Positions 20,506-62,580 of a stretch of DNA of 64,000 nucleotides are shown here, one piece after another. This stretch comes from Schmidtea nova. Lineage: Eukaryota. The notes below the pieces were generated by a model that did not search any database, was not told where the DNA came from, and saw only the letters and a program-made list of their open reading frames with translations. Position numbers and translations under genes: made by a program. Numbering within the stretch: position 1 is the stretch's first letter; each line of letters starts with the position of its first letter. The stretch lies in contig CM097884.1 of the NCBI GenBank assembly GCA_044892505.1, forward strand, positions 68,696,001 to 68,760,000, given 5' to 3'.

Positions 20506-20508
<3 letters not shown>

Positions 20509-20589: not shown

Positions 20590-20593
<4 letters not shown>

Positions 20594-25435: not shown

Positions 25436-25514
<79 letters not shown>

Positions 25515-38300: not shown

Positions 38301-40350
38301 TTCACAATACGGCAGTTATGATCGCGAGCAATTCAAATCGATACATTTTGGTAGGGATAATTTAATTTGCCCGGAAATAATGAATAAGAAAGAAACAAGA
38401 AATGAATTTATTCATGAATATAAACAAATACAGTAAGAATTTATTTTATTGGGATATTATTTCAGTTTTATTTATCAAATTAATTTTTCTTTTAAGATCA
38501 TTGACATTTTTGCAAGCCGATCTTTTATTTATTGATAAAGCACTCAACTATCCGGGATACGGAGAAGAACGATATCATGCAAAAGTAGGGAAAATTTTCA
38601 AATTTTTTCTCTAATTTTCAATTTTATTTTTAGTCACTGAAATCGCAAGATATTTTCATTGGAATATCTCCGAAAGGAATAACAGTCTATCACCCGAATC
38701 CAGAAGCGTTTTCATGGAAAAGTTACATCAATTGCTATGAAATGCTGGGAAATCTCACAATTTTATATTCGGACAAGATCGGAAAGAAACAATCCACAAT
38801 GTTGCGAACATATGATAATGGATTTCTAATAGAACTGTTCAAACGGAACGAATATGCATATCGGTAATCAAATATTGATTTTATTAATATTCCATTGATT
38901 GTTCCCATTTTATTAGAATGCTTCACAAGAAAACCTACAATATAAATATCACTCCAACTAAACAAATGATAAATGTAAGTAAAATCTTAATTTTTCACTA
39001 TTGATATATTCAATTTTTTATCGAATACTTTTCTTTTTGTGAGACTACCTTAATTCGTGCTAAATATGAAACACAATATTAACTGGTAGCCTGAGAGAAT
39101 TGGGAGCAATATTGAAACATACAAAAAAATTAAGAATATGAAAACTTTTTAATTGGATATTTTAATGATTTTTTTGTTTTTTATTTAGGAATCTGAATAT
39201 TCATCGGAAAAACCACCAATTCCAAAAAGACATAATTTTGTTTTAAGTGCAGAAAAAGAGAATGAAATTTTCACCAATGAAATGCAATCTCCGATTGCTT
39301 CAGAAACTTCATCCAATGAGTGCGATGAGAGAAATCAGTTGAGCGATCAAAACACAGATGACTCATGGTATCACAGTGATAACAGCGTATCTAGTAAGAA
39401 ATCAACGAAAGCACTTGTTTGTGATCAATATGTTATGAAAGGAAATCGCACTTCCGAACCCAGCGCCAGTTCACAATATTCATCAGATGAATCGATTAAA
39501 ACCTTAGAGGAAAACGAAGTTCAGAATTCAGCCAATCACAAAGAAAGTTGTTCCGAAAATCGATGCCTCCTCAGTTTCATGGATAATATCAAATCGGGAA
39601 ATTCTAGTGTCACGGGAAATATTGATTTACTTTCAGAACTAAATGGCGGCGAAGATCTGGAATTAATTAAAAAAGGACAATGGACAAATCTTTTCGATGA
39701 AGTTTACCGATACATGGATTATTATGAGCTGCAACATGACGGCGATTGCAACAATGAAACATTGAAACAGAATTCATTGCAAATTACCGAAGAAACGCCG
39801 AAAGAAATAAATGATTCGGAAAAGAAATACAATTCAACATCGAAATTGGAAGATCAAACTTTTCATGAATCTTTCAATCCGAATAAATTGTCAACAAAAA
39901 CTAAAAAGAAAAAAGGATTTTTGTGGAAATTGATCAAAAGTTTGAATAACTATTTCCGATAATTGGGAAAATTAATCATTTACATTCATGGAGGATTTTT
40001 ATATTTCTGATTGAATAATTGATAAATGTTTGCTGTGGTATTTATTTGGCTTTCATTCAAGTCAAATTTATAAAATATCCCGATTAATAATGTTGTGCTA
40101 ATATAGTTTCGGTAGGACTAAATTTTATTCTGACTCCTTGTGTTCTTTGAAAATCAATGAAATCCAACAAAAAAAATGTTTATTTATTAAGAACACATTT
40201 CCACAACGTTAATACACTTCGATTTTTGCTTTGGCTAAACTATCCGAAGGACGTCACCCATGAAATCTGATAGAGATGATATTCATTTTTAATCACTGAC
40301 GATTCTCCTTAATTTTCTAAAATTCTTAAATTTCTTACTCAAAATATTTT
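35311..40350 (+). repeat. 5.0-kb segment duplicated directly at 52013-57106
   Basis: Both copies start ATTTTCTAGCGGGATAG and end CTTACTCAAAATATTTT. Near identical apart from a 12-bp minisatellite expansion at ~53560-53630. Confidence 0.95.
37568..39962 (+). CDS. FERM (band 4.1) domain gene, copy B; 9 exons, 599 aa
   Basis: Exons 37568-37759, 37811-37918, 37971-38010, 38070-38196, 38250-38432, 38497-38584, 38634-38863, 38917-38974 and 39189-39962 join via GT-AG introns into an 1800-nt open frame. FERM motifs: ICQDLNIVEKNFFGLQY, RWLKP, FQYYP, YYLIEQLKNDI, YGSYD, QADLLFIDKA..YG, DIFIGISPKGITVY..FSW. Acidic/Ser-rich tail. Confidence 0.92.
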
Positions 40351-41424
40351 TGTTGAGGTTCCAAGAATCTCAACTTGATGAACTTATATAAATAAATAAG
40401 TCAAAGACTGGTTCTTTTCTAAACTTTATTTAAATTATAACAATTTACAATTTTGATAAAAATTAAACAATTACCTCACAAAATATATGTATCAATTTCA
40501 ACATATATTTTATATATGTATAGATGCGTGTGTGTGTGTGAATATTTGCAGCTTCCTGAGCTCGGATGTGTAAATAGGTATGCTCAAATTATGTTGTAAT
40601 ATCAATTTATTGAATTTACAACTCTTCTTTAAAGCTTTTGATTTTTGGGTGATTTAACTGAAAAATCAGTCAGTTTATATACTAAATTTTAAGGCACTTA
40701 ATCTGTCAATAATGATTGTTATTTTGCCTCTTGAGTTGATTGAAATTGTTTTTGAAAATAGAGTTGTTTTCAAAACAGAATTGTTTTCAAAATTATTTTT
40801 TAACCTTGAGATATTATTTCATTTTTCTGACCTTGTAGGTCAGAAATATAATTTATTTAAACAAACAGTAATTTATTTATTTTTAATTTATTTAAACAAT
40901 CTGTATTATTTATTTATTTATTTTATTATTATTATTATTTATTGAATTAAAATATTAAAATATAAATGAAAATATAATCCATTTTCCAAATAGTTAAAAA
41001 ATTAATTTACATAAAATATTTTCAACACAAAATATTTTTTCAAAATTATATAAAATTTTGTCCATCACCATAAAAATGTCAATAAATGTTCGCAATATCA
41101 CAAATGATAAATTGTCAAATTTTAAATTGTCATGATGATAAATTGTCATTATAAAAATTAATTTTCAACAATATTTTATTAACAGAAACAAAATAAAATT
41201 ATCCCATAAAAATAAAAATTGCCAGATAGTCATCACATAAAATATTATCATATAAAATCACTAAAATCATAATGTCATTGAATTTGATATTTTCCATTGT
41301 CTATCTATTTTAAAAAAATACATCAACAAATAAAATCAATTATTCATATCATCAATTATCAAAACCAATAAAATAAAAGAAAATGTTATCACAATCAAAT
41401 GTAGTTCATCAAGTCAAATTATTA

Positions 41425-43179
41425 TCATTGTTGGCCTGGGTTCTGATTGTTGTTATCCACATACACATTTAGTCTGTACTTATTTGCCCCTATTGTATAA
41501 TTTTCATCTATCTCAAAATTTTCGACTATCTTCCCTGTATCTAACACTACTCCCTGGGGCGTCAAGGTTATGTCCTCATAACCTTTTTCAACATAATATA
41601 TGTGTATTTCATTCCCATCTACAATCACTGTTGTTTTCTTTACATTGCTATTATATGTGACAGTGATTTCTGGCATGGGTTCTTCTATTGTGATTTGAGG
41701 TTCTGGTCCTAATTCATCTTCTTCCATTGGCTCAATTCCTTCTACTTCCAAATTAGAGTTATCTTCATCTATTGTTATGATTTCAAATGTTGGTTTCTTA
41801 TTTCCGTCCGATGTGGAACAATTTTCTTTAATTGTTTTCTTTGTTATTGTTTTCATTCCATTGTCAGCAGCTTTTTCCCATTCGGTTTCTGTGAGTAAAT
41901 ATAGTAAGCGAACTATTAAGCAAGTTTCACCAACATTAAAAGGTTCTGGTTTTAATAATATATTATTAAGTTTTTTGTTTCTCTTCAGATCATTTGTATT
42001 CTTAATAATCTGAAATGCTAAATTTGATAATTTAATCCTGTCTTCCGGGACATTATTGACGAATGTTTTCATATATTCGGTGTTCGAGAGTTCTCTTACT
42101 CCCATAATATCATCCAGGTCTATTGTGACACTTTTCAGTTTTTTCATAATGTCGAAACCTACTATTATTTTTCCATAGAGGTGTTTCTTGATTTCTAACA
42201 ATGCTATGAATTCGTCCATATTGCCTATACTATTTTCTCTGGTAGCCATTGTGATTTCTGGAAAGAATCTTTGTATTTTTTCTCTTGGGGTAATTTTACT
42301 TTGAAATAGTGTGTCTCCTTTGTAGTTTCTAATACAGACATCTACTGGTCTGTACTCTTTATTAAAATCTTGTACCGCTTTTATGTCTACAAAAGTTATT
42401 TTTCCTTGTCTTTCTTCGGGTGTTAGTGTTTGCTTCGTGAAAGGTATTTTCTTTTCTACGAATATGTTATCCATTCTAATGTCTGACCAAATGGGTTCTA
42501 ATTTTTTAAAGGGATTTTCTATTGTGGGTACATATAATATTTCAATTGCAATTACACATGGCATATTGTGTAATTGTATAATGATATTGTTGAATTCTGT
42601 AGACAATTTACGTTCTCTAAGGGTTTTAAATATTATTGATGTATTGTTTGCAGTCGCTAATACTTTATCGTTGTGTTTTAGTGATATTGTTGTTTTGGTA
42701 GTATGAATTACTATTCTATGGGGAATTTTGATGCCTTCTCTTGCATCTCTATCTGCATTTTGACTTTCTTCAAAACTACCTATAATTTCTTTTAATTTAA
42801 ATCTTCTTGATGAGTTGAATTTTACGATGATCATTTCTCTTTCTTCTATATCTACTTTTAATGCATTTGGTATGCATACCTGATTCGGGAATTTCCTTAG
42901 TGTAATTTCTTCATCATCTGTGTGAATGCTATTTTGAATGATCTTATAAAATGCTGTGTGGTGTTTATATGTGGTGCATGTGGATGTGCATGTGGATATT
43001 GTTGAGCTTGACTGATTGTTTGAGGCTGATTGGTTCATTGGTTGGATTGTTGGTTGATCTATTCTAAAAATAAAATATGACATTATATATTTTATATTAA
43101 TGCAGCTGTAGGACCTACCCTTAGATGCAATATAATATATTGTCAGATATGGGTAAATTTTATAAATTATTGGACACAT
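41425..43179 (-). CDS. Element ORF2 (584 aa): beta-rich N-domain, inactive DEDDh exonuclease-like domain (~41900-42405), acidic linker
   Basis: FVDIKAV..PVDVCIRNYKGDTLFQSKITP..EIT..LYGKIIVGFDI..VRELS..KLSNLA..FNVGET follows the REX4/ISG20 pattern, but the catalytic E, D, H and D appear replaced. Confidence 0.75.
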   Translation of the reverse strand: MCPIIYKIYPYLTIYYIASKGRSYSCINIKYIMSYFIFRIDQPTIQPMNQSASNNQSSSTISTCTSTCTTYKHHTAFYKIIQNSIHTDDEEITLRKFPNQVCIPNALKVDIEEREMIIVKFNSSRRFKLKEIIGSFEESQNADRDAREGIKIPHRIVIHTTKTTISLKHNDKVLATANNTSIIFKTLRERKLSTEFNNIIIQLHNMPCVIAIEILYVPTIENPFKKLEPIWSDIRMDNIFVEKKIPFTKQTLTPEERQGKITFVDIKAVQDFNKEYRPVDVCIRNYKGDTLFQSKITPREKIQRFFPEITMATRENSIGNMDEFIALLEIKKHLYGKIIVGFDIMKKLKSVTIDLDDIMGVRELSNTEYMKTFVNNVPEDRIKLSNLAFQIIKNTNDLKRNKKLNNILLKPEPFNVGETCLIVRLLYLLTETEWEKAADNGMKTITKKTIKENCSTSDGNKKPTFEIITIDEDNSNLEVEGIEPMEEDELGPEPQITIEEPMPEITVTYNSNVKKTTVIVDGNEIHIYYVEKGYEDITLTPQGVVLDTGKIVENFEIDENYTIGANKYRLNVYVDNNNQNPGQQ

Positions 43180-43273
43180 ATATAGATGATTTTGATATAA
43201 TTTTATTGGGTAAAATGATTTCTGAAATATGATTGGATGGGCTATTTTACAATTTATGATTGGGTTTTTTATT

Positions 43274-46200
43274 TTAACAAAGGGTAGATAGTGTGTACCT
43301 TCCAGGTATATATCTAATGAGAGAACTCCGATAACGCTGCCTCTTCCACTTATATTTTCTATAAGTTTGCGTTCCTATCCACATTGTTATAGTTATTAAT
43401 AATATTATGCTAAAAATTATTACATACATTGGCCATGTTTTATATAAAAGTTTTGGTTGGGGGTGATACAGATTTTGAAATTCTTCCCAGTTATTTATTG
43501 TTATTGCAGGTTTATTTAATGGTATTCTATTTAATATTCTAGGTTTTTCCGTTTGGGATCTTCTCTGCTTTTTCCTTTTGTATATTTTCTGAGATTTTGT
43601 TTTTATTATTTCACATTGGGTCTTTTTCAAATGCCACATTGGTGTTTCTGTACAGAAATAATAATTAGTGTCGGGTTTCAAATTTGTGTATCTGTCGATA
43701 TATTTCTTTTCGTTATTTTTCGTCTTTTGTATAACTTTTGAATTATTAATAAATTTTAAGTATGATTGAATCATTGGGTTCCTATTTAGATTAATAATTG
43801 TGATTTTATCATGTTCTCTTATTATTTTTATATCCTTGTTATTAATTATATTTGCATTAGCTGTATTAAATATAATGAGGGTGATTATTGATATCATTAA
43901 TATACTTTGTGGTTGTGATCTTAAGTTGTATTTATGTGGTTTTATTATTGGTAGTTCGTCTTCTGCAAGTTTGCATCTATTGACGTGCACAACAGTTGGA
44001 TCCTCGTTCTTATTTTTTTGGATATGTAAATTTTCGTTGATCACTTTTATGACTTCGTATGGGCCTTTAAATGGTCGTGCTAGTTTAGTTGTCTTACCCT
44101 TGCCTACTTGTGGTGACATTAATCTAATTTTGTCGCCTATTTTAAAATTATGAGGTTTAGCCGTTTTATCGTATTCATCCTTGTATTGTTCTTGACGAAA
44201 TTTAACTTTTAGATTAGTTATTTTATATACTTCTTGTAATCTTTCTTGCATTAGCGTAACATAATCTGGGGTGTCTAAATATTGTGATATTTTTGGTTCA
44301 AAGACCGTGTCAATTGGCATTATTGGTTCCCTTAAGTACATCAAATAGTATGGTGAATATCCAGTTGTTTCATTTGGTGTGATGTTATGGATATAAGTAC
44401 ATTGGTTTATATATTCATCCCAGTCGTTTTGATTTTTATTTACAAAAACTGATAGTCTATTCAATAATGTACCATTAAATCTTTCTACTAATCCATCTGT
44501 TTGAGGGTGGTATGCTGTTGTATTTATTTTTTGTATATTAAAAATATTAGCTATTCTAGAAATTGTTTCGCTCATAAAATTTCTTCCTTTATCGGTGAGT
44601 AATTTTCTTGGTGTGCCTAACTTAAATATAATTTTTTCCGTTAATAGCTTAGCTACTGTTTCCGCTGTTTCATCTTTTGTTGGAAAAGCTTCTGCCCACT
44701 TTGTGAAATAATCACTAAAAACCAATATGTGTTTATTACCGTTTATTGTAGTGGGTAATTTGCATAAAAAGTCCATGGCACATAGTTCCATAGGAGCTGT
44801 TGTTACAGGTATTGGACGAAGTGGTGCTCTTGTTTTAGTACCTGTATTTCTTCTAGTAGCACATATAGTACATGCTTTACACCACGCTTTAACATCATTT
44901 TTTAAATTTTCCCAGTAGTATTTTTGTAATAGTCTATTTGCTGTTTTTCTGGCTGATAAGTGACCTCCTAGTGTTCCATCATGATATTGTAATAAAAGTA
45001 TTTTTCTTAATTTTTGAGGGACTATAATGAGTTTATTCCCTGTCGTGCTTTCTATTATCAATAAATTTTTATTGATTTTATATTTATGGTTTTTTCCTTT
45101 TTTAATTTCATCTCTTATTTTTGATAAATCAGGATCGTTCATTTGTTCTTCATATATATGTATAGGGTTTTCTGCAACTATTGCGAATACTTCTAGAGCA
45201 CTTAATTCTGGTATACGAGATAATGCATCTGCATTCTTATTTATTCTGCCAGGTTTATAGATAATTTTAATTTGCATATCTTGAATCTTCATTGCCCATT
45301 TTAATAATCTACTTGAAGTATCTTTATGCTTCCATAACCCTTCTAATGGTTTGTGATCGGTTCTTATTATTACTTCTGATCCGTATATATATTGCTTGAA
45401 CTGTTTTAACGCAAACATAATAGCATAACATTCTTTCTCTATCGTCGAATATCTGATTTCAGCATTCTTTAACGTTTTGCTTGCATATGCGATGACGTAG
45501 TCTTTTCCTTTTTCCTCTTCTTGGCCTAAGACTGCTCCTACGGCTTTCCCGCTGGCATCTGTCATAATGATAAATTGTTTAGTAAAATCAGGGTATCTAA
45601 GTATTGGTGCAGTCACTAATTTTTCTTTCAGTTGTTCAAAGGAACTTTGTTGTCTTTGAGTCCACAATTTTTGTGGTTTTTCGTTAATTTTGTTTAATTT
45701 TTGGACTATCAGTGTTTTTCTTCCATCTTCCTTTGTTTTTACTCCTTTTGTTAATTCAATTAATGGAGCTGCTATTTTAGCATAATTTTCGATAAATTTT
45801 CGATAATACCCTGTTAAACCTAAAAATCCTTGTACTTCCTTAACTGATTTTGGTATTGGAAATCGTTGTACTGTTTTTATTTTGTCTGGGTTTGGGATTA
45901 TGCCTTCTACTGAGACAATATGTCCTAAATATAAGGCTGAAGGTTCTGCCCATTTACATTTTGTAGGTTTAATTTTAATTTTTGATTTTCTAAATCTTTC
46001 TAATACATTTTTTATATCTTCTAGATGTTCCTCGAATGTTTTTGATGCTATCAGTACATCATCCATATATACTGCGCAATGTTGTACATCTATCAATATC
46101 GTATTCATTAGCCTTTGAAATGTTGCTGGTGCATTTACCATTCCGAATGGTAGTCTTAAGAATTCGTATAGCTCATTTTCTATCACAAATGCTGATTTTT

Positions 46201-49200
46201 CAATATCTCCTTCTTCTATTTGGATTTGCATATATCCTTTATTAGCATCTATGACCGTAAAATATTTAGCGCCTCTTAGTTTATCGTATTGTTCTTGTGC
46301 CTTTGGAAATGGATATGAGTCTTTTGTTGTTACTTCGTTTAATTTTCTATAATCGATACACATTCTAATTTCGCCATCTTTCTTTCTAACTGGTACTATT
46401 GGTGAAGCCCACTGTGAGAAACTTTGTCTAATTACTCCTGCCCCTTTTAGTTCATTTATTTGTCTCTTTATTTCTTCTCGAAGTTTATATGGTGTTACAT
46501 AGGGTCGTTGTTTTATTGGTCTAGCGTTCCCTGTATCAATTACATGTTTAATGATATCCGTGTCTCCTAGATCAAATTCGTGCTTTGCAAAAACATCATT
46601 ATATTTATCAATTAATATCTGCAATAATTTTTGTTGAACCTTGTCCAGATAATCGTTATTTATTGTAGTCTTTTCGTAAAATTTAATGTCATTCGGTTTA
46701 ATTGTATCTTCAAGGTTGTTACTTTCTATACTTATCTCGCCAATATCGTATTTATATTTTGATAATTGACCTAATTTTGTACCTTTATGAATTTTTATTT
46801 TTCTGTTTTCGAAATTGGCAATTCGAATTGGGATTATACCCTTTTTGGGTATTACACATTCGTCCGTTAGCATTATATTTCTATTTTCTGTAATCGTTGT
46901 GTTGGGTTCGAAAATAAATATGTCATCACTTTGAATATTAACTTTTATAGGTATAATATTATCACTTTCATATTCTAGTTCAAATTCTTCTATCGCGCTT
47001 ACTTCTATCGGCTTTTTATAACTTTTGTTTATCTTTCTTTTTATTTTGTTATCTGACAAATCTATTACATGATTCTTTAATTTTTTCAGAATATCTATGC
47101 CTAGAATACATTTCCTTTGACATATATCTGCTACTCGGAACACATGATCTATGGTCTGATTTTCAAAGTATACTGTAAGTTTTACGTTTCCTTTAATAGG
47201 TATAGTGTGTGAAGAAAGTGACAATAATTCATCATTTGTTGATGTGATATTTTGAAGTTGTTTTTCTGTTAGTAGATCTTCTTCTATCAATGATGCAGCG
47301 GCACCGGTATCTACTAGCGCATTTAGTATTTGATTGTTTATCGTTATTTGGGTTCTTGGCCTCATGTCGTTCGCTTCTTCTCTTTCTTCTAGTCCATAAC
47401 ATCCGTATACTTTCTTTGGTTTTCTTATCAGCGTGTGGGTGTTATAATCTTTTAGAGGTATATTAGTTTCGATCTCATTGCCTAGATTTCTTAATTGATC
47501 CATGTGTATAATATATGGTCCTCCTTGCGTTGGTTCCGTGTGATCGAATTCTTCCGTATGATTATTTTCTTGATTGGTATTGTCATCTATTAGTCTTTCT
47601 TCTGTTGTCTTTCTTATTATTCTTTTGATATCTTTATCATGTTTTGCAGTTATTAAATATTTTGCAATAAATGGACATAAACAAGCTAGCATTTTGTATG
47701 AATTGCCAAATACTTGTCTCAGCTGTCTTAATGATACTAGTGATGAACATATCATTTTTAGTAGTGCAATAGAATAATAGATGCCGAGTATGGTTGAGAA
47801 GGTATTTCCTAGGATTGCAAAGTATCCCCATATACTATATAGAACTCGATAAACTACCTTCTTGAAGTGTTCTTTTGATAACAAGATGTCGAAATTGTAT
47901 TGTCCATCGTGGCTATTCTCGATAACTTTGCTTGCTATTATTGTTAGTACTTTCTCCTTTTCGTTCGGAAATAATAAATGTTTTCTTGCACTTTCTATGT
48001 CTTCCTTTGTATAAAGTCCATTGTTATCAAAATCATTTACTTCTATGAATTCTAGTTTCTTATCTAGTTCTGTCATTTCTAGATTTAGTGGTCTTATTGC
48101 TACCTTCTTATCTGACATCGTTATCCATGTTTCGTCATCTAATTTATATAGAGGGTCTAATAAGTTTGTACATTTATCTATTCTCTTAGGTATGTAGTTT
48201 TTATCTGTTAGTATCCTTGTTATGGGTTGTAAGTAGACTTTCTCTCCCTTATAAATAACTGGTAATTCGTTTGTACATTGTTTGTTCGTAGCTAATGATA
48301 CACTGACTGGTTTACATTGAAATGTTTGGATTACTTCGCCGACAACTCTAGCAAATGCGCCTCTTTCTGAAAAGAGCATTGGGGCCATTAGATCCGGATT
48401 TGTAATTGCTAATGCCATTTTCGTTCTTAAAATTTCTCGGTTAAGCTTACAATCATTTATTATTGTTTCTTGATATACCCTATCTAATTGCATTAATTGA
48501 TGGTGATAAAAATAGTCGATCTTATTATTGAAATATGATGAAAGTTTAATATCGTATTTGTTTACTTTTATTTTCGCATCTTTTATTTCATCTTTACTCA
48601 AATATAGACCTTTATAATTGGTTTGTATTATTGACTTTCCACATTTTATAATTTCCCCTTTACTAACAAATCTCAATGCTTCTCCTGAAGATTCTGTCAT
48701 ATATATTGTGGGTGTATCTTTTTCTTGGATTACAATTGTCTTTCGTTTTCTATCTCTTACTTTAGTTGATTCTGTATTTGTAAACTGTTTGCCTTTAATT
48801 GCTGTAAATTTTAGCGACTTCAATATTGTTAGAGGACAATCGTATGGATCAACTTTATATATTACTATTGATTCACCAGTGTCACAACTTACTTCTTTTG
48901 ATGTACAGAAAGGGTGTGTCATCATTTTTTGTGTTATGCTGTCAAATGATGCTTTAAACTGTCTAAGTTCGACAATGTATTCTCGTCTTACAACGGCGTT
49001 TTTTATAATGTGTCCCCATATTCTATATTCCCCACCTTGACAATATCCTCCCTGTGAAGACCATCCAATTACATCTACTCGTTGTTTTACTCGTGCACCT
49101 ACCTGTGCTTTTAGTTCGATTTCATGTATTTTTATCTTCTTTGATTGAAATGCATTTTCACACTCTTGTGGTGTTATTATAACTGTGTCTGGTGTAAATG

Positions 49201-52012
49201 ACGGTCGGAGTATCGTCCTTGCTATATTATTACATACAAAGACTTCTTCAGAATATTTTATTACACATTCTTTTGCTTCTGTATGTATAAAATCAGATTC
49301 TTGATAAACATAAAATATTTTAGGTTCTGTGGTACTTAAAGTGGTTGGATTAGCTTCTGGGCAATTTTCTACATCTAATAGTGAATATTTTTGTCCCCAT
49401 TTTGGATTCTGACAATCATAAGCGATCATACCTGTACTACTCTTTATTAAGTTAAGTAATATTGTTATCATCATTATTATAATAGGTATTGATAATCCAT
49501 GATTACTTTTTCCTGATTTCATCAATGTTTTATTTATTATTTTCTTTAATCGTCTTTCAACTTTTTTTTCTTGGGTATCTATTTCTATGGTAGGTGTCTC
49601 TATCGGCACTGTTTTATCGTATAAGATTTGCCACCCACCTTTAGACTGTATCCATGGTATCACTTCGGGTTTAAATTTTATTAATATTTGTTCGGCTACT
49701 CGATGTACTTGTTTCTCCGCATTTTTTATCAATACATATTCTGATCTATAAATGAGGTATGCCAATGCTGTTACTACTCTATCCCGATTGATTCCTGTTC
49801 TGAATAATATTTTCAAGACAACTTTTTCATTAACATCTTCAGTCACTAAGTTTTTTATATCTGTTGTAATTAGTTTAATTCGATTCCCTATGTTATCTGC
49901 TAAAGATGATATGTTTGCGTTGGAATATAATCTTGGGTATACAGTTTTAATCAAATCTATAATTATATCTGTATCTTCACTATTTGTTGACATTTCGCTT
50001 GCAATCTCTCTCAATTTTTCCGCCATCCGTTTACTGGTAAACTTATTTGTTATTTCTGACTCTTGTGACTCATCTCCATCTTGTTTTATCGTTTCAAAAT
50101 CCTCTGCTTCATATGTTACATCGTTTTTCTGACTCGCATCTGATATAGATATTCTTCTATCATTAGCAATCCATTCATCTAGCATTGATTCTAATCCCAC
50201 TTTAACTGATACGGTTATTATATTGTTATCAATTGAATTTATCCCATAGTCCATTAAAAAATCTTCACTTTGCATCTTTATTCCGTAAAAGTATAATACT
50301 ATTTCATCATTGATTCCTATTTCGCTGTACCAATTTGCTCTGGCTATTTGTTTTATCTTTTTCACTTTTGTACAAGTATGTACCCCTTGTTTATGAATGA
50401 TGATTTTAGGTGTATCTCCATTTTTTGTTTCTAATGTAATTTCCAAGGGTTCATGTAACTTCTCATTTTTTCGAACAAATTCACTATAACATCTCAACAT
50501 CTCTTTTATCTCAATTTCTAATTCAAACAACTTTGTTTCCTTTTGTCTTTGAGCCAATAGCGGTATCAAGTTTCTCAGATTCTCAAGATTTATCCCCTCT
50601 ACATGAATTTTATTTAATATTCTCAATACTTCATTATCATCTATAGGGTACTTTTTTAAAGATTCGTCCAATTCTTGCTTTAAAATATTATGTCTATCTA
50701 TCTCTGCTAGTAATTCTTCATCTCTTTCTCTTTGTTCTCTTAATTCATCATTATCCATCTTAACTTCATTAGTAAAAGTTTTAAACTCATTAATCAATAC
50801 ATTAATTTTATTCCTTTCAATTAGTCTCTCATATTTTGTCTTAAATTCTTGTAATTCATCCCTCAGCATCTCGATTTCATTATTGGGTTCTTTAACCTCC
50901 ATACCATTTATTTGTTTCACCTCTGGCTCCTTTTTAAACTGCACTCTGTTTGGTGATTCAACTCGTATATTTCTACATGCTTTTGCCATATGACCATACT
51001 TTTGACAATTAAAACATTTTATTTCACCTCGAAAATTAATTTTGTCTCTTCCATCATTATTAAATGGGCTAGGTCTTCTATCTCGATTATACATTTGTTG
51101 ATTTGGACTTGGTCGTCTACCTCTAAGATTATCTCTATTTGACCCAAAATTATATCTATTATCATCATATCTATTTCGATCAGAACTGTTCCTTGTATTA
51201 AAGTTATCCCTATAGTTCCGATTATCATTAAAACGACTATTTTTATTATATCGATTATTATCAAAATAATTATCCCTATTATAGTTTAAACGTCTCTCAT
51301 TATCTTTATTATATTCAAAGTAATTATTTTTATCATTTCTGGTAAATTCTACATAATTGTCATTTCGACTATTCGGTCTACCCCTTGGGCTATTTGACCT
51401 CTTATTATTTTCTGGTGATTGATTTCGACTTGCATTTGGACTCATCCTTTTTCTATTTTTAACAAAATTCAAATATAACTGCTTCATCTCTTCCCATGGA
51501 ATATTATCATCTTTATCAGTTACCTCAGATTTCCCTATTTTACTCTCTAATTCTACTGCATCAATTGTTGCGTTAGATCTATCTCTTTGAATTGCTTCAA
51601 TTCTTCGAGCTTTCTGAACTAGTTCGTTTAAATCTTCATATTCGACCATTATTAATGCCTTGTATAAATATTTTTGAATTCCACTCCAAAATTGATCCTC
51701 TATTAATTTCGCAGTATGTTCTCCTACTCCAAAAGCTTTTCGAGCTAACTCGGTCAAATTATACACATATTCTCCAATTGTTTCTCTGCTACCTTGGTAT
51801 CTATTTCTAAATTTTTGTACATTAATTTTCTGCAAATCTCGCTCAATTACAATTTCACCTCTTAAATTGTTGACTAAGTCTTCCCAATTTCTACCCTTAC
51901 ATTCTAAATTATTATATGCCTGCAATGCATAACCCTTTAAATATAATGGAATTCGTCTTTTTAACTCATCTTGTGTCCACCCACAAGCCTCTGCGTATTG
52001 TGCAATTTCATC
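43274..52012 (-). CDS. Single polyprotein Gag-Bcl2-like-Env-PR-RT-RH-IN-FN3-like/TM
   Basis: The frame stays open upstream of the listed TTG start (IAQYAEACGWTQDELKRRIPLYLKGYA). Zinc knuckle CFNCQKYGHMAKAC 50975-51016; protease LVDTGAAASLI ~47305; RT YMDD ~46060; RNase H TDAS ~45555; integrase HHCC + DDE core ~44450-44985; GPY ~44085. No stop or frameshift in 8.7 kb. Confidence 0.95.
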   Translation of the reverse strand, partial: DEIAQYAEACGWTQDELKRRIPLYLKGYALQAYNNLECKGRNWEDLVNNLRGEIVIERDLQKINVQKFRNRYQGSRETIGEYVYNLTELARKAFGVGEHTAKLIEDQFWSGIQKYLYKALIMVEYEDLNELVQKARRIEAIQRDRSNATIDAVELESKIGKSEVTDKDDNIPWEEMKQLYLNFVKNRKRMSPNASRNQSPENNKRSNSPRGRPNSRNDNYVEFTRNDKNNYFEYNKDNERRLNYNRDNYFDNNRYNKNSRFNDNRNYRDNFNTRNSSDRNRYDDNRYNFGSNRDNLRGRRPSPNQQMYNRDRRPSPFNNDGRDKINFRGEIKCFNCQKYGHMAKACRNIRVESPNRVQFKKEPEVKQINGMEVKEPNNEIEMLRDELQEFKTKYERLIERNKINVLINEFKTFTNEVKMDNDELREQRERDEELLAEIDRHNILKQELDESLKKYPIDDNEVLRILNKIHVEGINLENLRNLIPLLAQRQKETKLFELEIEIKEMLRCYSEFVRKNEKLHEPLEITLETKNGDTPKIIIHKQGVHTCTKVKKIKQIARANWYSEIGINDEIVLYFYGIKMQSEDFLMDYGINSIDNNIITVSVKVGLESMLDEWIANDRRISISDASQKNDVTYEAEDFETIKQDGDESQESEITNKFTSKRMAEKLREIASEMSTNSEDTDIIIDLIKTVYPRLYSNANISSLADNIGNRIKLITTDIKNLVTEDVNEKVVLKILFRTGINRDRVVTALAYLIYRSEYVLIKNAEKQVHRVAEQILIKFKPEVIPWIQSKGGWQILYDKTVPIETPTIEIDTQEKKVERRLKKIINKTLMKSGKSNHGLSIPIIIMMITILLNLIKSSTGMIAYDCQNPKWGQKYSLLDVENCPEANPTTLSTTEPKIFYVYQESDFIHTEAKECVIKYSEEVFVCNNIARTILRPSFTPDTVIITPQECENAFQSKKIKIHEIELKAQVGARVKQRVDVIGWSSQGGYCQGGEYRIWGHIIKNAVVRREYIVELRQFKASFDSITQKMMTHPFCTSKEVSCDTGESIVIYKVDPYDCPLTILKSLKFTAIKGKQFTNTESTKVRDRKRKTIVIQEKDTPTIYMTESSGEALRFVSKGEIIKCGKSIIQTNYKGLYLSKDEIKDAKIKVNKYDIKLSSYFNNKIDYFYHHQLMQLDRVYQETIINDCKLNREILRTKMALAITNPDLMAPMLFSERGAFARVVGEVIQTFQCKPVSVSLATNKQCTNELPVIYKGEKVYLQPITRILTDKNYIPKRIDKCTNLLDPLYKLDDETWITMSDKKVAIRPLNLEMTELDKKLEFIEVNDFDNNGLYTKEDIESARKHLLFPNEKEKVLTIIASKVIENSHDGQYNFDILLSKEHFKKVVYRVLYSIWGYFAILGNTFSTILGIYYSIALLKMICSSLVSLRQLRQVFGNSYKMLACLCPFIAKYLITAKHDKDIKRIIRKTTEERLIDDNTNQENNHTEEFDHTEPTQGGPYIIHMDQLRNLGNEIETNIPLKDYNTHTLIRKPKKVYGCYGLEEREEANDMRPRTQITINNQILNALVDTGAAASLIEEDLLTEKQLQNITSTNDELLSLSSHTIPIKGNVKLTVYFENQTIDHVFRVADICQRKCILGIDILKKLKNHVIDLSDNKIKRKINKSYKKPIEVSAIEEFELEYESDNIIPIKVNIQSDDIFIFEPNTTITENRNIMLTDECVIPKKGIIPIRIANFENRKIKIHKGTKLGQLSKYKYDIGEISIESNNLEDTIKPNDIKFYEKTTINNDYLDKVQQKLLQILIDKYNDVFAKHEFDLGDTDIIKHVIDTGNARPIKQRPYVTPYKLREEIKRQINELKGAGVIRQSFSQWASPIVPVRKKDGEIRMCIDYRKLNEVTTKDSYPFPKAQEQYDKLRGAKYFTVIDANKGYMQIQIEEGDIEKSAFVIENELYEFLRLPFGMVNAPATFQRLMNTILIDVQHCAVYMDDVLIASKTFEEHLEDIKNVLERFRKSKIKIKPTKCKWAEPSALYLGHIVSVEGIIPNPDKIKTVQRFPIPKSVKEVQGFLGLTGYYRKFIENYAKIAAPLIELTKGVKTKEDGRKTLIVQKLNKINEKPQKLWTQRQQSSFEQLKEKLVTAPILRYPDFTKQFIIMTDASGKAVGAVLGQEEEKGKDYVIAYASKTLKNAEIRYSTIEKECYAIMFALKQFKQYIYGSEVIIRTDHKPLEGLWKHKDTSSRLLKWAMKIQDMQIKIIYKPGRINKNADALSRIPELSALEVFAIVAENPIHIYEEQMNDPDLSKIRDEIKKGKNHKYKINKNLLIIESTTGNKLIIVPQKLRKILLLQYHDGTLGGHLSARKTANRLLQKYYWENLKNDVKAWCKACTICATRRNTGTKTRAPLRPIPVTTAPMELCAMDFLCKLPTTINGNKHILVFSDYFTKWAEAFPTKDETAETVAKLLTEKIIFKLGTPRKLLTDKGRNFMSETISRIANIFNIQKINTTAYHPQTDGLVERFNGTLLNRLSVFVNKNQNDWDEYINQCTYIHNITPNETTGYSPYYLMYLREPIMPIDTVFEPKISQYLDTPDYVTLMQERLQEVYKITNLKVKFRQEQYKDEYDKTAKPHNFKIGDKIRLMSPQVGKGKTTKLARPFKGPYEVIKVINENLHIQKNKNEDPTVVHVNRCKLAEDELPIIKPHKYNLRSQPQSILMISIITLIIFNTANANIINNKDIKIIREHDKITIINLNRNPMIQSYLKFINNSKVIQKTKNNEKKYIDRYTNLKPDTNYYFCTETPMWHLKKTQCEIIKTKSQKIYKRKKQRRSQTEKPRILNRIPLNKPAITINNWEEFQNLYHPQPKLLYKTWPMYVIIFSIILLITITMWIGTQTYRKYKWKRQRYRSSLIRYIPGRYTLSTLC
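47650..49500 (-). other. Chuvirus-type (class III, gB-related) envelope glycoprotein domain
   Basis: Signal-like IPIIIMMITILLNLIKSSTG, then AYDC..YSLLDVENC, YDCPL, CG..I..TNY.GLYL, DCKLNR, GAFARVVGE..CKPV, CTNELPV.Y..YLQPITRIL, then a hydrophobic anchor VLYSIWGYFAILG..IYYSIALLKMIC. Confidence 0.8.
49615..50035 (-). other. Bcl-2 family domain within the polyprotein
   Basis: BH3-like MAEKLREIASEM, BH1-like LFRTGINRDRVVTALAY and BH2-like VIPWIQSKGGWQIL, in the correct order and with plausible spacing. Confidence 0.8.
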
Positions 52013-54322
52013 ATTTTCTAGCGGGATAGTTGTTATTCTCGGAATTAAAACTTTTATTATAAAAATTATGTCGAAAATATTATAAATGAAATAAATATAT
52101 TAATTTATTTTAAAAAATTGATTGTTAAAATTTGAAAATGTCTAACACTAAGAGTTTGATTATTTTTACTTTTATTTGTTCTTTCGTTTAATTATTCAAA
52201 GTCATTCTTAAAAAGATTCTAGGGCTGTAACCTATTTTAAAAGTAGTCTTGGATTATTGTGCTCCCAAGTTGTTGGTATGTAAAATATACCATTTCACTG
52301 GTATCAATATCGAGGAGTTGTTTGAAATGCACTACGATATGGTGCTTTGGGCTGGAGTCAAATGAGTCGAAAACTGCATTCTAGCACCAATGGATGTTCT
52401 TGCTGTCATGATTTTAAACGACAGCAATCGGTTCATCTTTGGTAGCTGAAATGAGAAAGTCACACTATTCTGATATTTACAATACCAAATACATTAATTT
52501 GCGGAAGAATATCAAGATGATGCCGAAGAAGATTTGATTTAAATCAAAATTTACTTTAAAATTTCGTGGTTTTTATTGATGTTTCTTTTTGTTAATATTT
52601 TTGTGAATTTTCATTGACGCTTGGTAATTTTGAGAGTCATTCGTGTTTATTTATTGTCTTGTTGTTTGTCAATCCTTTTTATGATTTTTTTGTGTATTGA
52701 TCTTTTTTATAGAATTTTTATAAGTTGGAATTTGTTTTTGCAGATCAGTTATTTATGTGATTTGTAAAATTTCTATTGTTTTGCAAAAACTTTAGAAAAA
52801 TTAATAAATTTCAAAGATTTTTAAAAAGGTTTTAAAATTGAAATAAATATATATAATTTTTATTTTATGTCACTGGTTATGCAATGAAAATATTATATAA
52901 TTGAGTACTTAATTATAAAATATTATATAATTCTGAAATATTGCGTTAATTTTGTAACCTCCTAGAAATATAGGGAGACTAATTGTAATTGATAGAGTTT
53001 ATGGATAAATGACTTGTACCAGAGTGTTCACTTCTCCCTACTGATCAAATCAATAATAAATTCTAGTGTTCTTTTTTTCAGTGTAGTCATCAAGCTAAAA
53101 CATGAGGAAATTTAGCAGGTGGCGTTTTTTTGCGGAATGATAAAATTGCCAAAATTTTAACAGTATACGTTGATCCAATATTCAAAAACCAAAATTAGAA
53201 CATATTGTTATGGTTTGCATGAACAGGCACGAAATAAAATAAAACTTACAAAAATATACGCAAAAAATATAAAAGCCTGTAAATTTAAAAAATAATATTA
53301 AAATACAAAAATTAATTAGAAATTTGAAAATTTTGAAAGTAAAGATTTAGCGGGGAAACTAGTATAGGAGGATGAGACGAATTAAAATACGGTAAGATGA
53401 AATTAAAAAGGGCCCCGAAAAAATAGGAAAAAACAAATTAATTAAAGGAATTAATTATTCAATGGAAAACCCGAGTGATGTGAGGAACCCTAGCCATCAG
53501 CAAATATATCTAATTATCAAGAAAATCAGATGAGTAGAGGGAGTTCGGGCGAACAATCACAAACCCAATCAAAAACCCAATCACAAACCCAATCACAAAC
53601 AATCACAAACCCAATCACAAACCCAATTACGAAATTGGAAATCCCGCAGTAAAAAAGGAAGTCACTATAAAAACCCAGACAAATGGCTCAAATCGCCAAT
53701 TGGTCGAAGCATGAAAATTTAATTCCAAAATTAGCTATAGTTTTCAAAGAGAAGTTTTAAAGTTAAAAAAGGTTAGAATTTGTGTCGAATCAATTTTTGC
53801 GTACCAGAAAAGAATCTCCAACATGAAGACCTACCCCTAACGCAAGAACAGTGTAGAAAATTCTGTTTTTGTAATTTTGAAGCCAAATTTGAAAATAAAA
53901 ATTTTTGTGTTGGGTTTTGGTTAATTCGTTTATACAGAAAGGACACAGGGAGTCAGACAGTAATCGACTATTAAATAATAACCCAACAATATTTACTAAT
54001 GTAAAGTTTTTGTTTCAAAAATTAAATTTTATTTATGTTAAACTTTATTTCTTAGACTTTTTATAGCCAAAATAGTGAGAAACTTATCCCAGGATGAATA
54101 ATGTAAAAATTAATTCAGTTTGTGAATAATATAACTTGGTAAATAGAAGCATATTAAAAATTATGAAAGCCTAAATGTTTATTTTTTGCGGAAATATTTT
54201 CTGTTTTTTAAAATGAGGAAATACAAATATTTTTATTTCAAATTTATTCATCTTATTGAGTAATAATTATCTAGAAATGATGAGAAAATATTTAAAAATT
54301 CATTTTTACAAATATAATACAA

Positions 54323-56718
54323 ATGGAATATTCAAATACCTACTACTACAGTTTAGTCGATAATTCAAGATTTAATATGTATAAATCGCTGGCCAATGAA
54401 AATCGTCGAATAATCAATGACAATTTTAATCAAACAGCAAACACCAAAAAATCCAAAAAATACGAATGTGAAGTAAGAATATTCAACGAAATTGTAACCC
54501 GATACGAATTCGATGTATGTTATTTTTATTATTGTTTTATATATTATTAATTATTTATTATCCAGAGAAATTACACCGGATCGAATTTGGTATCAAAAAT
54601 CTGTCAAGATTTAAACATCGTAGAGAAAAACTTTTTTGGCTTGCAATACCTGTCTAAATTACATGGAAATAAAGTTAGAATTTTTATCAATAATTTATAA
54701 GTAATATTTAAAACATTATTTTTAGCGTTGGCTCAAACCCGATGAAAATATCGTCAAAGCAATGAGTAAGTGTCATCTAGAAAAAGGCTTTTGATTAATT
54801 ATTATAATTTTCACCTATTTCTAGAAGGAGTAAACAATATTGTATTTATTTTCATGTTTCAATATTATCCCTCCAATTTAATCTATGTGGAAGATTACAT
54901 GACAATCTATTATTTGATCGAACAACTTAAGAATGACATTCGAAATCAAAAGTGAGTTCAATCAATAAATAATAATAATAATAATAATAATAAATCTATT
55001 TTAGAATAAAATGCTCTATCAATGAATCAATAAAATTATCGGCAATTTTATTCTTTTCACAATACGGCAGTTATGATCGCGAGCAATTCAAATCGATACA
55101 TTTTGGTAGGGATAATTTAATTTGCCCGGAAATAATGAATAAGAAAGAAACAAGAAATGAATTTATTCATGAATATAAACAAATACAGTAAGAATTTATT
55201 TTATTGGGATATTATTTCAGTTTTATTTATCAAATTAATTTTTCTTTTAAGATCATTGACATTTTTGCAAGCCGATCTTTTATTTATTGATAAAGCACTC
55301 AACTATCCGGGATACGGAGAAGAACGATATCATGCAAAAGTAGGGAAAATTTTCAAATTTTTTCTCTAATTTTCAATTTTATTTTTAGTCACTGAAATCG
55401 CAAGATATTTTCATTGGAATATCTCCGAAAGGAATAACAGTCTATCACCCGAATCCAGAAGCGTTTTCATGGAAAAGTTACATCAATTGCTATGAAATGC
55501 TGGGAAATCTCACAATTTTATATTCGGACAAGATCGGAAAGAAACAATCCACAATGTTGCGAACATATGATAATGGATTTCTAATAGAACTGTTCAAACG
55601 GAACGAATATGCATATCGGTAATCAAATATTGTTTTTATTAATATTCCATTGATTGTTCCCATTTTATTAGAATGCTTCACAAGAAAACCTACAATATAA
55701 ATATCACTCCAACTAAACAAATGATAAATGTAAGTAAAATCTTAATTTTTCACTATTGATATATACAATTTTTTATCGAATACTTTTCTTTTTGTGAGAC
55801 TACCTTAATTCGTGCTAAATATGAAACACAATATTAACTGGTAGCCTGAGAGAATTGGGAGCAATATTGAAACATACAAAAAAATTAAGAATATGAAAAC
55901 TTTTTAATTGGATATTTTAATGATTTTTTTTGTTTTTTATTTAGGAATCTGAATATTCATCGGAAAAACCACCAATTCCAAAAAGACATAATTTTGTTTT
56001 AAGTGCAGAAAAAGAGAATGAAATTTTCACCAATGAAATGCAATCTCCGATTGCTTCAGAAACTTCATCCAATGAGTGCGATGAGAGAAATCAGTTGAGC
56101 GATCAAAACACAGATGACTCATGGTATCACAGTGATAACAGCGTATCTAGTAAGAAATCAACGAAAGCACTTGTTTGTGATCAATATGTTATGAAAGGAA
56201 ATCGCACTTCCGAACCCAGCGCCAGTTCACAATATTCATCAGATGAATCGATTAAAACCTTAGAGGAAAACGAAGTTCAGAATTCAGCCAATCACAAAGA
56301 AAGTTGTTCCGAAAATCGATGCCTCCTCAGTTTCATGGATAATATCAAATCGGGAAATTCTAGTGTCACGGGAAATATTGATTTACTTTCAGAACTAAAT
56401 GGCGGCGAAGATCTGGAATTAATTAAAAAAGGACAATGGACAAATCTTTTCGATGAAGTTTACCAATACATGGATTATTATGAGCTGCAACATGACGGCG
56501 ATTGCAACAATGAAACATTGAAACAGAATTCATTGCAAATTACCGAAGAAACGCCGAAAGAAATAAATGATTCGGAAAAGAAATACAATTCAACATCGAA
56601 ATTGGAAGATCAAACTTTTCATGAATCTTTCAATCCGAATAAATTGTCAACAAAAACTAAAAAGAAAAAAGGATTTTTGTGGAAATTGATCAAAAGTTTG
56701 AATAACTATTTCCGGTAA
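54323..56718 (+). CDS. FERM (band 4.1) domain gene, copy C
   Basis: Same exon structure as copy B with only scattered substitutions (e.g. EVYQY vs EVYRY). Confidence 0.9.
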
Positions 56719-57319
56719 TTGGGAAAATTAATCATTTACATTCATGGAGGATTTTTATATTTCTGATTGAATAATTGATAAATGTTTGCTGTGGTATTTA
56801 TTTGGCTTTCATTCAAGTCAAACTTATAAAATATCCCGATTAATAATGTTGTGCTAATATAGTTTCGGTAGGAACACATTTTATTCTGACTCCTTGTGTT
56901 CTTTGAAAATCAATGAAATCCAACAAAAAAAATGTTTATTTATTAAGAACACATTTCCACAACGTTAATACACTTCGATTTTTGCTTTGGCTAAACTATC
57001 CGAAGGACGTTACCCATGAAATCTGATAGAGACGATATTCATTTTTAATCACTGACGATTCTCCTTAATTTTCTTAAATTCTTAAATTTCTTACTCAAAA
57101 TATTTTTAAATATTTCTCCTCAGACCAATTGGTAATTTTATTGAGATGAATTGGTTTATATACCACTCTCAATCCCATCAATCACTCTGGAGAAGCATGA
57201 AATCCAACTCTTCACACTAATTTTAAAATTTGAAATTTTCTTTGTTAGTGGCGCTCTGATAAATAGTTTTCCGGCTTGTCAGATCTGCCACTTTACCTCC
57301 TTTCCACAATGATTGGTGA

Positions 57320-58933
57320 GTTTCAACTTTCCCCTTTCGCGTCTTGCTTCTAGATAAACATCTTGTGCGCTGGCCCCCTAGTAAAATTGCATTAGTTCTC
57401 GTATTGCTGCAACCTATGAAATTCAACGACATATCGTAATGTATAGTTCGAATTCTTTCAGAAATGTTTGTAGTTTATTTTTACTACCATTGAATTGTTC
57501 TAATCGCAATATTTACCTAAAATCTCATATGTTTTTGTTCGTTGTTGTTATGATGATTGATGATGTTCGGATGCTTGGATTAGAATTTTCCGTCACTTTA
57601 TCTTTTTCTTCTCTTTTTTCAACTAATTTATCTCCTCTATCTTAAAATTCTATGTCGATTTCTTCTTCAATTACGTTTTCTTGATTTTTTGAAACAAATA
57701 TTTCTATGGCCTTCCCGGTGTAATAACTTCTAACTCTACGGAGTTGAGTTTTATATATCGAAACTTCTTCTTTTCTTTGCATTTTCTCTATCGTTTTATT
57801 CTAATGAATTTTCTTCATTGTTACTTGTTTGACTTGCGATATTATTTTTTCTCTTTGATTTTTAACCCTTATATTCAATTTTCTCCTCAATTTATTGCTT
57901 CTTTACTTCTTATTTCTCAATTTCAACTTACAGTCCTTTGCTGCTTTTTTTTCTTTAATTGCCTTTTCAAAACTGACTCGACCGACTCAGGTTGATTGAT
58001 CTATATATACACTTTCAAAATCTTACAATATGTCTTTCTATTCATCTGATTTATCCTATCTCCGAATTTTTGCTACTCATATTTACATGACGTCTGACGT
58101 CATACATAAGGTTTTTCGTTAGTCCCCCTATATTTTAAGTCAGATTACAAACTGCTCTTACCCCGTAATTATTATCTATACTAGCTGTATTAATTATCCG
58201 GTCTCTCAATTCTTAATCTTTCCAAACAAAATGAAAATTCCGGATTTCAAAATTCGATTTATTTCTTAAACTTGCGAGATTCTAAATTCCTATTATTATC
58301 TCTTTTAATTTTCCTTAGATTTCCATATACACATGTGTCAATTCTTTCACTGTTTAGAATCTATTAATTCTTAATTCTCTTTCCTATATCTTTATATTCC
58401 AAATTATCGTTTAACTCTTTTTCATCATTATCATAGACTACGTTTATGTTAGAGTTTGAAATTATATCCGTGGGTCGTGTTATTGATCCTAATACTAACC
58501 TGTCTCGATTGCACTGCTCACCATCGGCAGGAATATGTTATTGATGGAGTAATAAGCCTCTTGGTCTCACTGCTAGTCACTAATTAAATCATGGGGTATA
58601 TTTTTGACTAAGTTCCTATCTAATCCCATTGCGGCGACTGTAACAAGGTCGTTAACGATTAATGAGATAACTGCTTGTCGATCCAGTGTGTCCCACTTGG
58701 TGGCGTATTTTCCTTGAGCTTGCGCCCGGGAACTCAACCATATCGTAGTTTAAATGTGAGTCTAGTACTCTGGATTTGGGTTTCTGAACTGAGTACTATC
58801 TCATTACGCCAAATATTACACTTGGATTTCGTTTTAAATTTTTTATTTGTATTTCTATTAATTATTACTCCAATAATATTTAACCTTTTCTCTAACAAAA
58901 ATAAAAATGCCTTGGTACCGTTTCAATTATTAA
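57320..58933 (-). mobile_element. Decayed LTR family copy F4 (leader plus gag N-terminus)
   Basis: Inverted homology to 27040-28345 and 29760-29910. QFNGSKNKLQTFLKEFELYITICR. Truncated at 57320, where homology to FERM-flank copy A begins. Confidence 0.75.
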
Positions 58934-58935
58934 TA

Positions 58936-60208
58936 CAGGATAAACCAATAAGTTTTGTCCGGTGAAACATGTATAAATTTCAAAACATCAAAAATGTCAA
59001 TCATTAGTGTCAGAGAGATGTTCAAAATATGCACCATTATGAAGGACACATATGCACCATCGATCAACCAAGCGTCCAGAACCACTTGAATTTCATCAAC
59101 TGCGTTGAAATCTCTTCCACGACTCGCAGATTTCAAAGGGGAAAACAAATAAAAATCGGATGGTGCGAGGTCTGGGGAGTAAGGATGATGTGGCTGAACA
59201 GTAAAACCAAAGTCAGTATGTTTTTGCACAGATTTGGCTGCCGTTTGGGGTCGTGCATTGTCGTGGAGATAGTGAATTTGATGAAACCCACCACAAAGAA
59301 GACGGCGTCGCTTTTGTTGTATTGTCGTCAGCAGACGGGACAGCTGTTCGCAGTAAACATCGGCAGTGATTGTAGCACCCTGCGGCAGAATATCCATCAT
59401 AATCACACCTCTACAGTCCCAAAAGACGGACATGAGATGTTTTCTGGGTGAGACCTGCGCCTCTCCACGAACGGTGGTGATAGGTTCCGTCGTTGTTCCA
59501 ATAGATCCAGACTTCGTCCATTGTAATGAGCTGACTGAGGAAGTCATTAGCAGCATATTTGCACAGCAGCTCATTGCATATTTTCTCACGGTTGGCCATT
59601 TGTTGCTCGGACAACTTGTGCGGGACCCAGTGGTTGCACAGGTAACGCATGCCCATTGCAAGCAGATGATTTCGAATTGTCTGCTGACAAACTCCAAGCT
59701 CCACGCTTATTTCCACAGTACTGTTGTGTTCCTCCAAAAGAGCTAGAATTTTGTCGACGATATCAAGAAAGGGCCTCCAACATCGCTCTTTGTCTTCAAC
59801 ATCAAAGTTTCCTTCCTTGAAGTTTGCAACCCAGCGTCGATAAGTGCGCTCATTTGTTGTGTCCTTCCCCAGTGTCAAATTTATTTCATTTCAATCTGGA
59901 AAGGCACTAATACACTTTCCAATTGTAGTAGATTAACTTGCAGATGTCCTCTCGTGCGAAATTCATTTCAAATCGACGTATTCTAATGAAAACAAAAAGT
60001 ATTTCCGTCAAACAAGAAATTTATTAAAAGTGCTTAATCCACATATCAAAGTTAATAGCAATGTTAAAAATTATTAATAATGGATTTTTTTAAATTTTAC
60101 AAATCTACAACATATATAGCATGGCACATAAAGTTGCAGACCTATACACTCATTATAGCATTGGAAAGCTGAGTATGAGCACCGCACAAAACTTATTGGT
60201 TTATCCTG
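58936..60208 (-). mobile_element. Full-length (1273 bp) mariner element with frameshifted DD34D transposase
   Basis: TIR CAGGATAAACCAATAAGTTTTGT(C/G)CGGTG with TA TSD at both ends. Motifs WVPHKL, ITMDEVWI, LHDNARP, HPYSPDLAPSDFYLF split over two frames. Confidence 0.95.
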
Positions 60209-61589: not shown

Positions 61590-61982
61590 NNNNNNNNNNN
61601 NNNNNNNNNNNNNNNNNNNNNNNNNNNNNNNNNNNNNNNNNNNNNNNNNNNNNNNNNNNNNNNNNNNNNNNNNNNNNNNNNNNNNNNNNNNNNNNNNNNN
61701 NNNNNNNNNNNNNNNNNNNNNNNNNNNNNNNNNNNNNNNNNNNNNNNNNNNNNNNNNNNNNNNNNNNNNNNNNNNNNNNNNNNNNNNNNNNNNNNNNNNN
61801 NNNNNNNNNNNNNNNNNNNNNNNNNNNNNNNNNNNNNNNNNNNNNNNNNNNNNNNNNNNNNNNNNNNNNNNNNNNNNNNNNNNNNNNNNNNNNNNNNNNN
61901 NNNNNNNNNNNNNNNNNNNNNNNNNNNNNNNNNNNNNNNNNNNNNNNNNNNNNNNNNNNNNNNNNNNNNNNNNNNNNNNNNN
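61590..61982. other. Assembly gap (393 N)
   Basis: Run of N. Confidence 1.

Positions 61983-62580
<598 letters not shown>

Follow-up and report, generated by a model that had tools for sequence, protein, structure and literature searches.

Organization of the element

The sequence analyzed here is a 64,000-nucleotide window of the Schmidtea nova genome (GenBank assembly GCA_044892505.1, contig CM097884.1, positions 68,696,001 to 68,760,000; A+T ~70%), and its main subject is a Ty3/Gypsy long terminal repeat (LTR) retrotransposon that carries a gene for a viral-type membrane fusion protein, referred to below as G. A single open reading frame (ORF) of 2941 codons spans positions 43274-52099 on the (-) strand, and the segment singled out by an initial annotation of this DNA (47650-49500) corresponds to its residues 867-1484. 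The ORF is composed, in this order, of Gag, a ubiquitin-like domain (Ubl), a Bcl-2-like domain, G, protease (PR), reverse transcriptase (RT), RNase H (RH), integrase (IN) and a second membrane protein (Table 1). The 29 codons between 52012 and the frame end at 52099 are part of a host duplicate, and the first methionine is located deep within Gag. Pfam domains of Pol follow each other as PR-RT-RH-IN and a GPY/F module lies after the integrase core (GPY motif at residue 2679; PF22938, E 8e-4, below cut-off), two features of Ty3/Gypsy elements, so that the Gypsy-type Pol of the initial annotation is borne out. A point absent from that annotation is the location of G within the Gag-Pol frame, behind the Ubl and Bcl-2-like domains.

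Several of the smaller domains were assigned through remote similarity. The Ubl profile was built from 4 segments chosen by eye and hand; Pfam ubiquitin is matched by two of the four members taken singly, the window member not being among them (below the Pfam cut-off). All 57 PDB matches of the Bcl-2-like domain are Bcl-xL, Bcl-2 or Bax (57/57, best E 0.01), and a BH2-like motif is likewise found in 4 relatives. Family searches matched the linker between PR and RT to no known family; by a motif and by analogy with the planarian Burro elements it may be dUTPase-like. A homologue search with ORF2, which follows the polyprotein, gave no matches; Atlas RNase_T clusters at 0.76 provide a lead only, and ORF2 matches an in-frame region of the relative P0019 with E 4e-4. 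P0019 carries, at residues ~370-760, two stretches of exonuclease-like sequence that are similar to ORF2 and are placed in frame after Gag and before Ubl, an arrangement which at the sequence level suggests that cargo may move between polyprotein and accessory ORFs.

Table 1. Features of the retroelement and of the adjoining 5-kb repeats (positions within the window).
Feature	Position	Strand	Remarks
5-kb unit, other copy	35311-40351	.	adjoins LTR end
Likely 3' LTR	40352-41300	-	ends ...CAACA; start not fixed
ORF2, 649 codons stop to stop	41425-43374	-	possible degenerate DEDD/RNase T-like exonuclease region
Polyprotein ORF, Gag-Ubl-Bcl2-G-PR-RT-RH-IN-membrane protein	43274-52012	-	5'-truncated at 52012
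Second in-frame membrane protein past integrase	43277-43915	-	signal-like segment, FN3-like ectodomain ~43595-43852, transmembrane helix, basic tail
Integrase (H2C2, rve core, GPY/F module)	43970-45022	-	IN aa 2360-2532
Reverse transcriptase and RNase H	45278-46390	-	RT aa 1904-2062, RH aa 2146-2274
PR-RT linker	46712-47002	-	kept in 4 relatives, E 8e-10 to 1e-6
Aspartic protease	47072-47365	-	PR aa 1579-1676
gB-type (class III) fusion protein, predicted; Monjiviricetes G family	47543-49483	-	anchor ~47738-47845
Signal-peptide-like hydrophobic segment, internal, ahead of G	49430-49504	-	by hydropathy; putative cleavage
Bcl-2-like domain (BH1-BH2 region)	49631-49819	-	PF00452 E 1.8e-5, below cut-off
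Ubiquitin-like domain	50195-50452	-	4-sequence profile matches ISG15/ubiquitin, E 4e-5
CCHC zinc knuckle	50972-51022	-	
Retrotrans_gag-like capsid part	51701-51952	-	PF03732 E 0.001, below cut-off; BLAST against relatives' Gag E 2e-14
5-kb unit copy at the place of the element's missing 5' end	52013-57107	.	99.4-99.9% identical to 35311-40351

The G protein

The presence of a glycoprotein gene at 47650-49500 was substantiated, G and its signal segment spanning ~47543-49504, by the match to PF24664 (Monjiviricetes_fusion), which covers residues 873-1519 with E 1.3e-87 and a score of 295 bits, where the cut-off is 27. In alignment A1, which holds 115 rows and one named chuvirus G among them, each of the 14 ectodomain cysteines is conserved in 92-100% of the rows without a gap; family and cysteine pattern are those of the Jingchuvirales glycoprotein. 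Judged by hydropathy only, the ectodomain is bounded by a hydrophobic signal segment and a transmembrane anchor. The signal-peptide-like segment precedes G in all 16 element-borne G proteins inspected, and elements that are only ~25-40% identical retain it together with the anchor and the full set of 14 cysteines. The predicted model of G resembles herpesvirus gB, of the class III fold, and the sequence profile matches gB with E 0.008. The top matches in BFVD are proteins of chu-like viruses (E 2e-42 to 8e-39), with the G proteins of qin- and xinmoviruses close behind (E 4e-36, 2e-34 and 3e-30). G is predicted to be a gB-like class III fusogen.

Relatives of G and co-divergence with Pol

A phmmer search returned 1267 proteins at E <=0.001, and relatives were drawn from the best 150 of these 1267. 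Among the matches listed, the closest are element polyproteins (26-53% identity), followed by stand-alone G proteins (21-30%). Taking all comparisons together, other elements are 25-54% and named viral G proteins 17-24% identical to the G of the window; chu-, qin- and xinmoviruses score alike, at a similar distance of 17-21%. The protease lies directly 3' of G in 12 of the 21 proteins scanned. Cargo and frame vary among relatives: locus L001 encodes Gag-Ubl plus a Bcl-2-like stretch and then G in a different frame, and L002 has a single Gag-G-Pol ORF in which the Ubl and Bcl-2-like cargos are absent.

The element-borne G proteins belong together in phylogenies. A FastTree phylogeny was built from 130 rows, which remained after 10 near-duplicates had been removed from the proteins that match the profile at 380 positions or more. 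In it the 20 element-borne rows form one clade with support 99, and in an IQ-TREE analysis of 37 of these 130 rows the 15 element-borne rows are grouped with support 98/94. The approximately unbiased (AU) test rejected a clade uniting them with the BEL/Pao-type row P0151, in which G lies behind DUF5641 (p 1e-62), as well as grouping with Wufeng shrew chuvirus 2 (p 6e-5) or Wenling crustacean virus 13 (p 7e-4). The G tree is unrooted, contains 2 named chuviruses and does not include the mosquito element Anakin; as the nearest rows outside the element clade are also long-branched, no donor is named. Identities of G and of RT-RH correlate across the 8 elements that have both regions (r 0.90, reached in 11 of 40320 permutations), and the G and RT trees have three strongly supported splits in common. 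This co-divergence points to an old capture of G and to its inheritance together with the element. The correlation shows long co-inheritance and not selection, since related elements share history.

Some observations on single relatives were made in passing. Aspartic-protease domains are repeated in P0157, P0008, P0007, P0010 and P0018; P0157 (4844 aa) has at least 6 BLAST matches to aspartic protease, and some of these domains lie past the integrase. The G-Pol polyprotein P0012 (HBK71150.1) bears the label of a protein from a Flavobacteriaceae metagenome-assembled genome, likely through eukaryotic contamination of the bin. In the bee protein P0054 a stand-alone-type G is joined to an RNase H fragment, possibly by fusion of gene models.

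Proposed function of G and of the second membrane protein

Domain order, family match, conserved cysteines and co-divergence with RT, which are observed, together with the gB-like fold, which is predicted, make it very probable that the segment is the env of a GAG-ENV-POL-type Ty3/Gypsy LTR retrotransposon (Burro-like, a gB-type errantivirus), encoding in frame a predicted class III fusogen for particle entry. Such a fusion gene would likely let the element pass between cells. Processing by signal peptidase is known in viral polyproteins, and by analogy Gag, Ubl and the Bcl-2-like domain would be synthesized in the cytosol, after which the internal hydrophobic segment would thread G into the endoplasmic reticulum and signal peptidase would free its N-terminus. 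The anchor of G would bring PR-RT-RH-IN back to the cytosolic side, for cleavage of the chain by the protease, and the FN3-like membrane protein would be inserted by means of another internal signal. Particles that bud with G trimers could then fuse with the membranes of target cells. The Bcl-2-like cargo would be left carrying a basic stretch with a hydrophobic tail, much as a tail-anchored regulator of apoptosis does.

Several points weigh against assigning G in this way. The ectodomain has no N-x-S/T sequon, the sole one of the G region being at residue 1513, past the membrane anchor, so that G is a glycoprotein by homology only. The TM-score of the model to gB is only ~0.42, and the alignment underlying the model is rich in chuvirus-like G proteins, which renders the viral ranking partly circular. 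The placement of the window element is weakly resolved and differs between the G and RT trees. A single LTR is present, itself inferred, and contig depth, which is 180-340 in the internal region of the element and ~20 in the non-repetitive part of the 5-kb repeat, comes from 4 runs of one study and is not copy number. Finally, the available part of PMC6431247 likens the Burro env to the gypsy Env (F-type), contrary to the gB-like fold predicted here.

It is unlikely, on balance, that G is kept for a role other than particle entry, acting instead on the host cell through cell-cell fusion or membrane tethering of Gag, as the Bcl-2-like and ubiquitin-like cargo would. The in-frame fusion, which gives G equimolar with Pol, and the lack of ectodomain sequons would fit such a role, as would the second-hand report, in PMC13465017, that Burro1 protects stem cells through a cargo domain. 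However, a working fusogen would be expected to retain its signal segment, its anchor and each of its 14 cysteines, as G does across such divergent elements.

The protein encoded past the integrase may bear on the entry function proposed for G. Its module (signal, ectodomain with an L-x-P-x-T-x-Y motif and transmembrane helix) is present in 4 of 6 full-length polyproteins; in the other two, L002 and P0021, the signal segment at this place is joined to an ectodomain of another kind. With a profile of four post-integrase segments, 21 of 22 PDB rows were of FN3 type (best single-stretch E 0.0075), a weak match from a motif-based selection, and searches with the single sequences do not reach FN3; we take the matched proteins (Tie2, anosmin, neogenin, contactin, IGF1R, fibronectin and similar receptors) to be FN3-containing. 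Herpesvirus gB is partnered by gD and gH/gL. As a tentative proposal suggested by sequence, one polyprotein may supply a two-component envelope, in which a type I membrane protein with an FN3-like ectodomain, encoded where env canonically lies, assists the gB-type fusogen as attachment or trigger partner; the module may be captured cargo instead. Section 7 of PMC6431247 makes no mention of this protein, nor does it appear in the available part of PMC13524379. A two-component envelope would, if true, address how errantiviruses with gB only enter cells, a matter left open in that same part of PMC13524379, and the post-integrase protein makes entry of such elements testable. Having an unbroken env within a single ORF, the element can serve as a compact model for errantiviruses of the gB type.

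Boundaries of the element

The 3' LTR probably lies at ~40352-41300, and the element would be a 5'-truncated copy of a multicopy family, set between two copies of a host unit. In the bins at 40.1-41.3 kb summed contig depth rises to 3200-4200, with loose ends at 41299. Lacking the 5' LTR and the start of Gag, this copy is likely not autonomous. The 5-kb unit, which has ATTTT at its start and end, is likely a host duplication and not an LTR. A third copy, inverted and partial, lies at 31962-35109, and each of the three near-identical copies holds a 257-codon ORF without Pfam match. The three copies (31962-35109, 35311-40351 and 52013-57107) reflect either a recent rearrangement or an assembly artefact, and the arrangement around the element possibly arose by one-ended integration with a large duplication, by later rearrangement or by misassembly. 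Since the direct repeats bracket the coding region at 99.4-99.9% identity, they might be taken for giant LTRs, which would turn the whole 22-kb unit into one Burro-sized element; this view, which concerns the boundaries only, is very improbable, as the border of the repeat falls within Gag and its ends are not TG...CA, its third copy bears extra flank, and its depth is about one tenth of that of the internal region, with the deepest part at 40.4-41.3 kb ending in CAACA.

Origin of G

G likely goes back to an ancient acquisition from a Monjiviricetes-type virus, or to an ancestor in common with such a virus, and from then on was passed down together with Pol. What the initial annotation called a chuvirus-type glycoprotein stands as regards family, cysteine pattern and predicted gB-like class III fold, whereas a chuvirus donor is not supported; element-borne G forms its own clade in the unrooted tree. 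An ancient donor may have been chuvirus-like, given this unrooted tree with its 2 named chuviruses. The claim of an independent capture keeps its phylogenetic part, the sequences suggesting an old capture in a lineage independent of that of BEL/Pao, and loses its novelty, a planarian Gypsy with such an env having already been published. The further idea of a record of RNA-virus infection in this host lineage is not supported, G diverging together with RT-RH over 8 elements. That a chuvirus glycoprotein was captured recently and specifically in this lineage is very improbable: although the chu-like top matches in BFVD and the common cysteine pattern favor it, G is closer to other elements than to named viruses, qin- and xinmovirus proteins match nearly as well, a sister relation to both named chuviruses was rejected in the unrooted tree, and S. 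mediterranea has a relative with ~68% identity over G domains I-II, with G and RT diverging together.

Other features of the window

Besides the element, the window holds further repeats and a gene. Two repeats at 24699-24855 and 25082-25239, spaced by 383 bp, both have a 5' motif that we take to be U1-snRNA-like and, after it, a core that resembles a hammerhead (Rfam HH9; E 0.002 and 0.094, both short of the gathering threshold); by sequence they may form a tandem repeat of the retrozyme-like type. At 19622-24149 (-) lie other Gypsy Pol fragments, decayed and 27-43% identical to the polyprotein of the element (P0001), with no G match. A frameshifted mariner transposase lies at 58933-59890 (-) (PF01359, E 2e-13), and short palindromic elements of the miniature inverted-repeat type with ends in common lie at 18248-18440 and 25227-25525. 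The first coding exon of an EF-hand gene, presumably calmodulin-like, is located at 62482-62580 (-), adjoining tandem repeats and an N gap at ~61590-61982.

Comparison with known systems

Among the nearest described elements are the giant Gypsy elements of planarians named Burro (Burro/GYPSM1; Arkhipova & Yushenova, PMC6431247), which, by section 7 of that paper, have Ubi/SUMO, BCL-2 and env in frame between gag and pol and mononegavirus fusion-protein matches. They share with the window element the single polyprotein in which Ubl is followed by Bcl-2 and in-frame env, but their ORFs have 4873-5140 codons against 2941 here, and their length exceeds 30 kb against the ~11.7 kb remaining here. 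The BIR, MATH and ankyrin cargo of Burro1 has no Pfam match in the window polyprotein, and the element is described as Burro-like and not filed as Burro1, Burro1-4 being compared through their published description. The fold predicted here suggests that the fusogen encoded by Burro-type env may belong to class III and not to the F type.

Outside flatworms, the same kind of G is carried by the mosquito Anakin elements, LTR elements with a Chuviridae-like glycoprotein but a BEL/Pao backbone, against Gypsy here (Dezordi et al.; available parts of PMC10084718 and PMC13524379). As far as its available part goes, PMC10084718, the earlier of the two, reports no clear Gypsy capture in arthropods, in line with the premise of the initial annotation. 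The available part of PMC13524379 (Chary & Hayashi) describes a Chuviridae-like gB-type env on many Gypsy elements, argues for an ancient acquisition, and gives the GAG-ENV-POL order for nematodes, bryozoans and flatworms, including six S. mediterranea elements. The G proteins of Jingchuvirales, xinmoviruses and qin-related viruses, together with herpesvirus gB, are alike in family, cysteine pattern and class III fold, at 17-24% identity to the window G for the viral G proteins and 10-13% for gB; unlike such viruses, the window has no L or N gene among its long ORFs as read by eye.

The window element has the traits of these gB-type GAG-ENV-POL errantiviruses, namely an env between gag and pol, an ectodomain predicted to be gB-like, and signal and transmembrane flanks by hydropathy. 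Its closest counterpart is Platyhelminthes_Rhabditophora_Smed_errantivirus_3, described there with a gB-type env, the GAG-ENV-POL order and cysteine group C1a, which the window G matches by cysteine positions. By hand count ~167 of 245 residues (~68%) are identical and 8 of 8 cysteines match, a comparison of the domain I-II string alone, with cargo domains outside it; at ~32% divergence, Smed_errantivirus_3 is either a distinct family or an orthologue in the other species. The similarity to this one element, taken with the A+T content of ~70%, suggests a planarian host. The window element is therefore a Gypsy retrotransposon whose env type and flatworm gene order are already in print, and not a fresh chuvirus capture.
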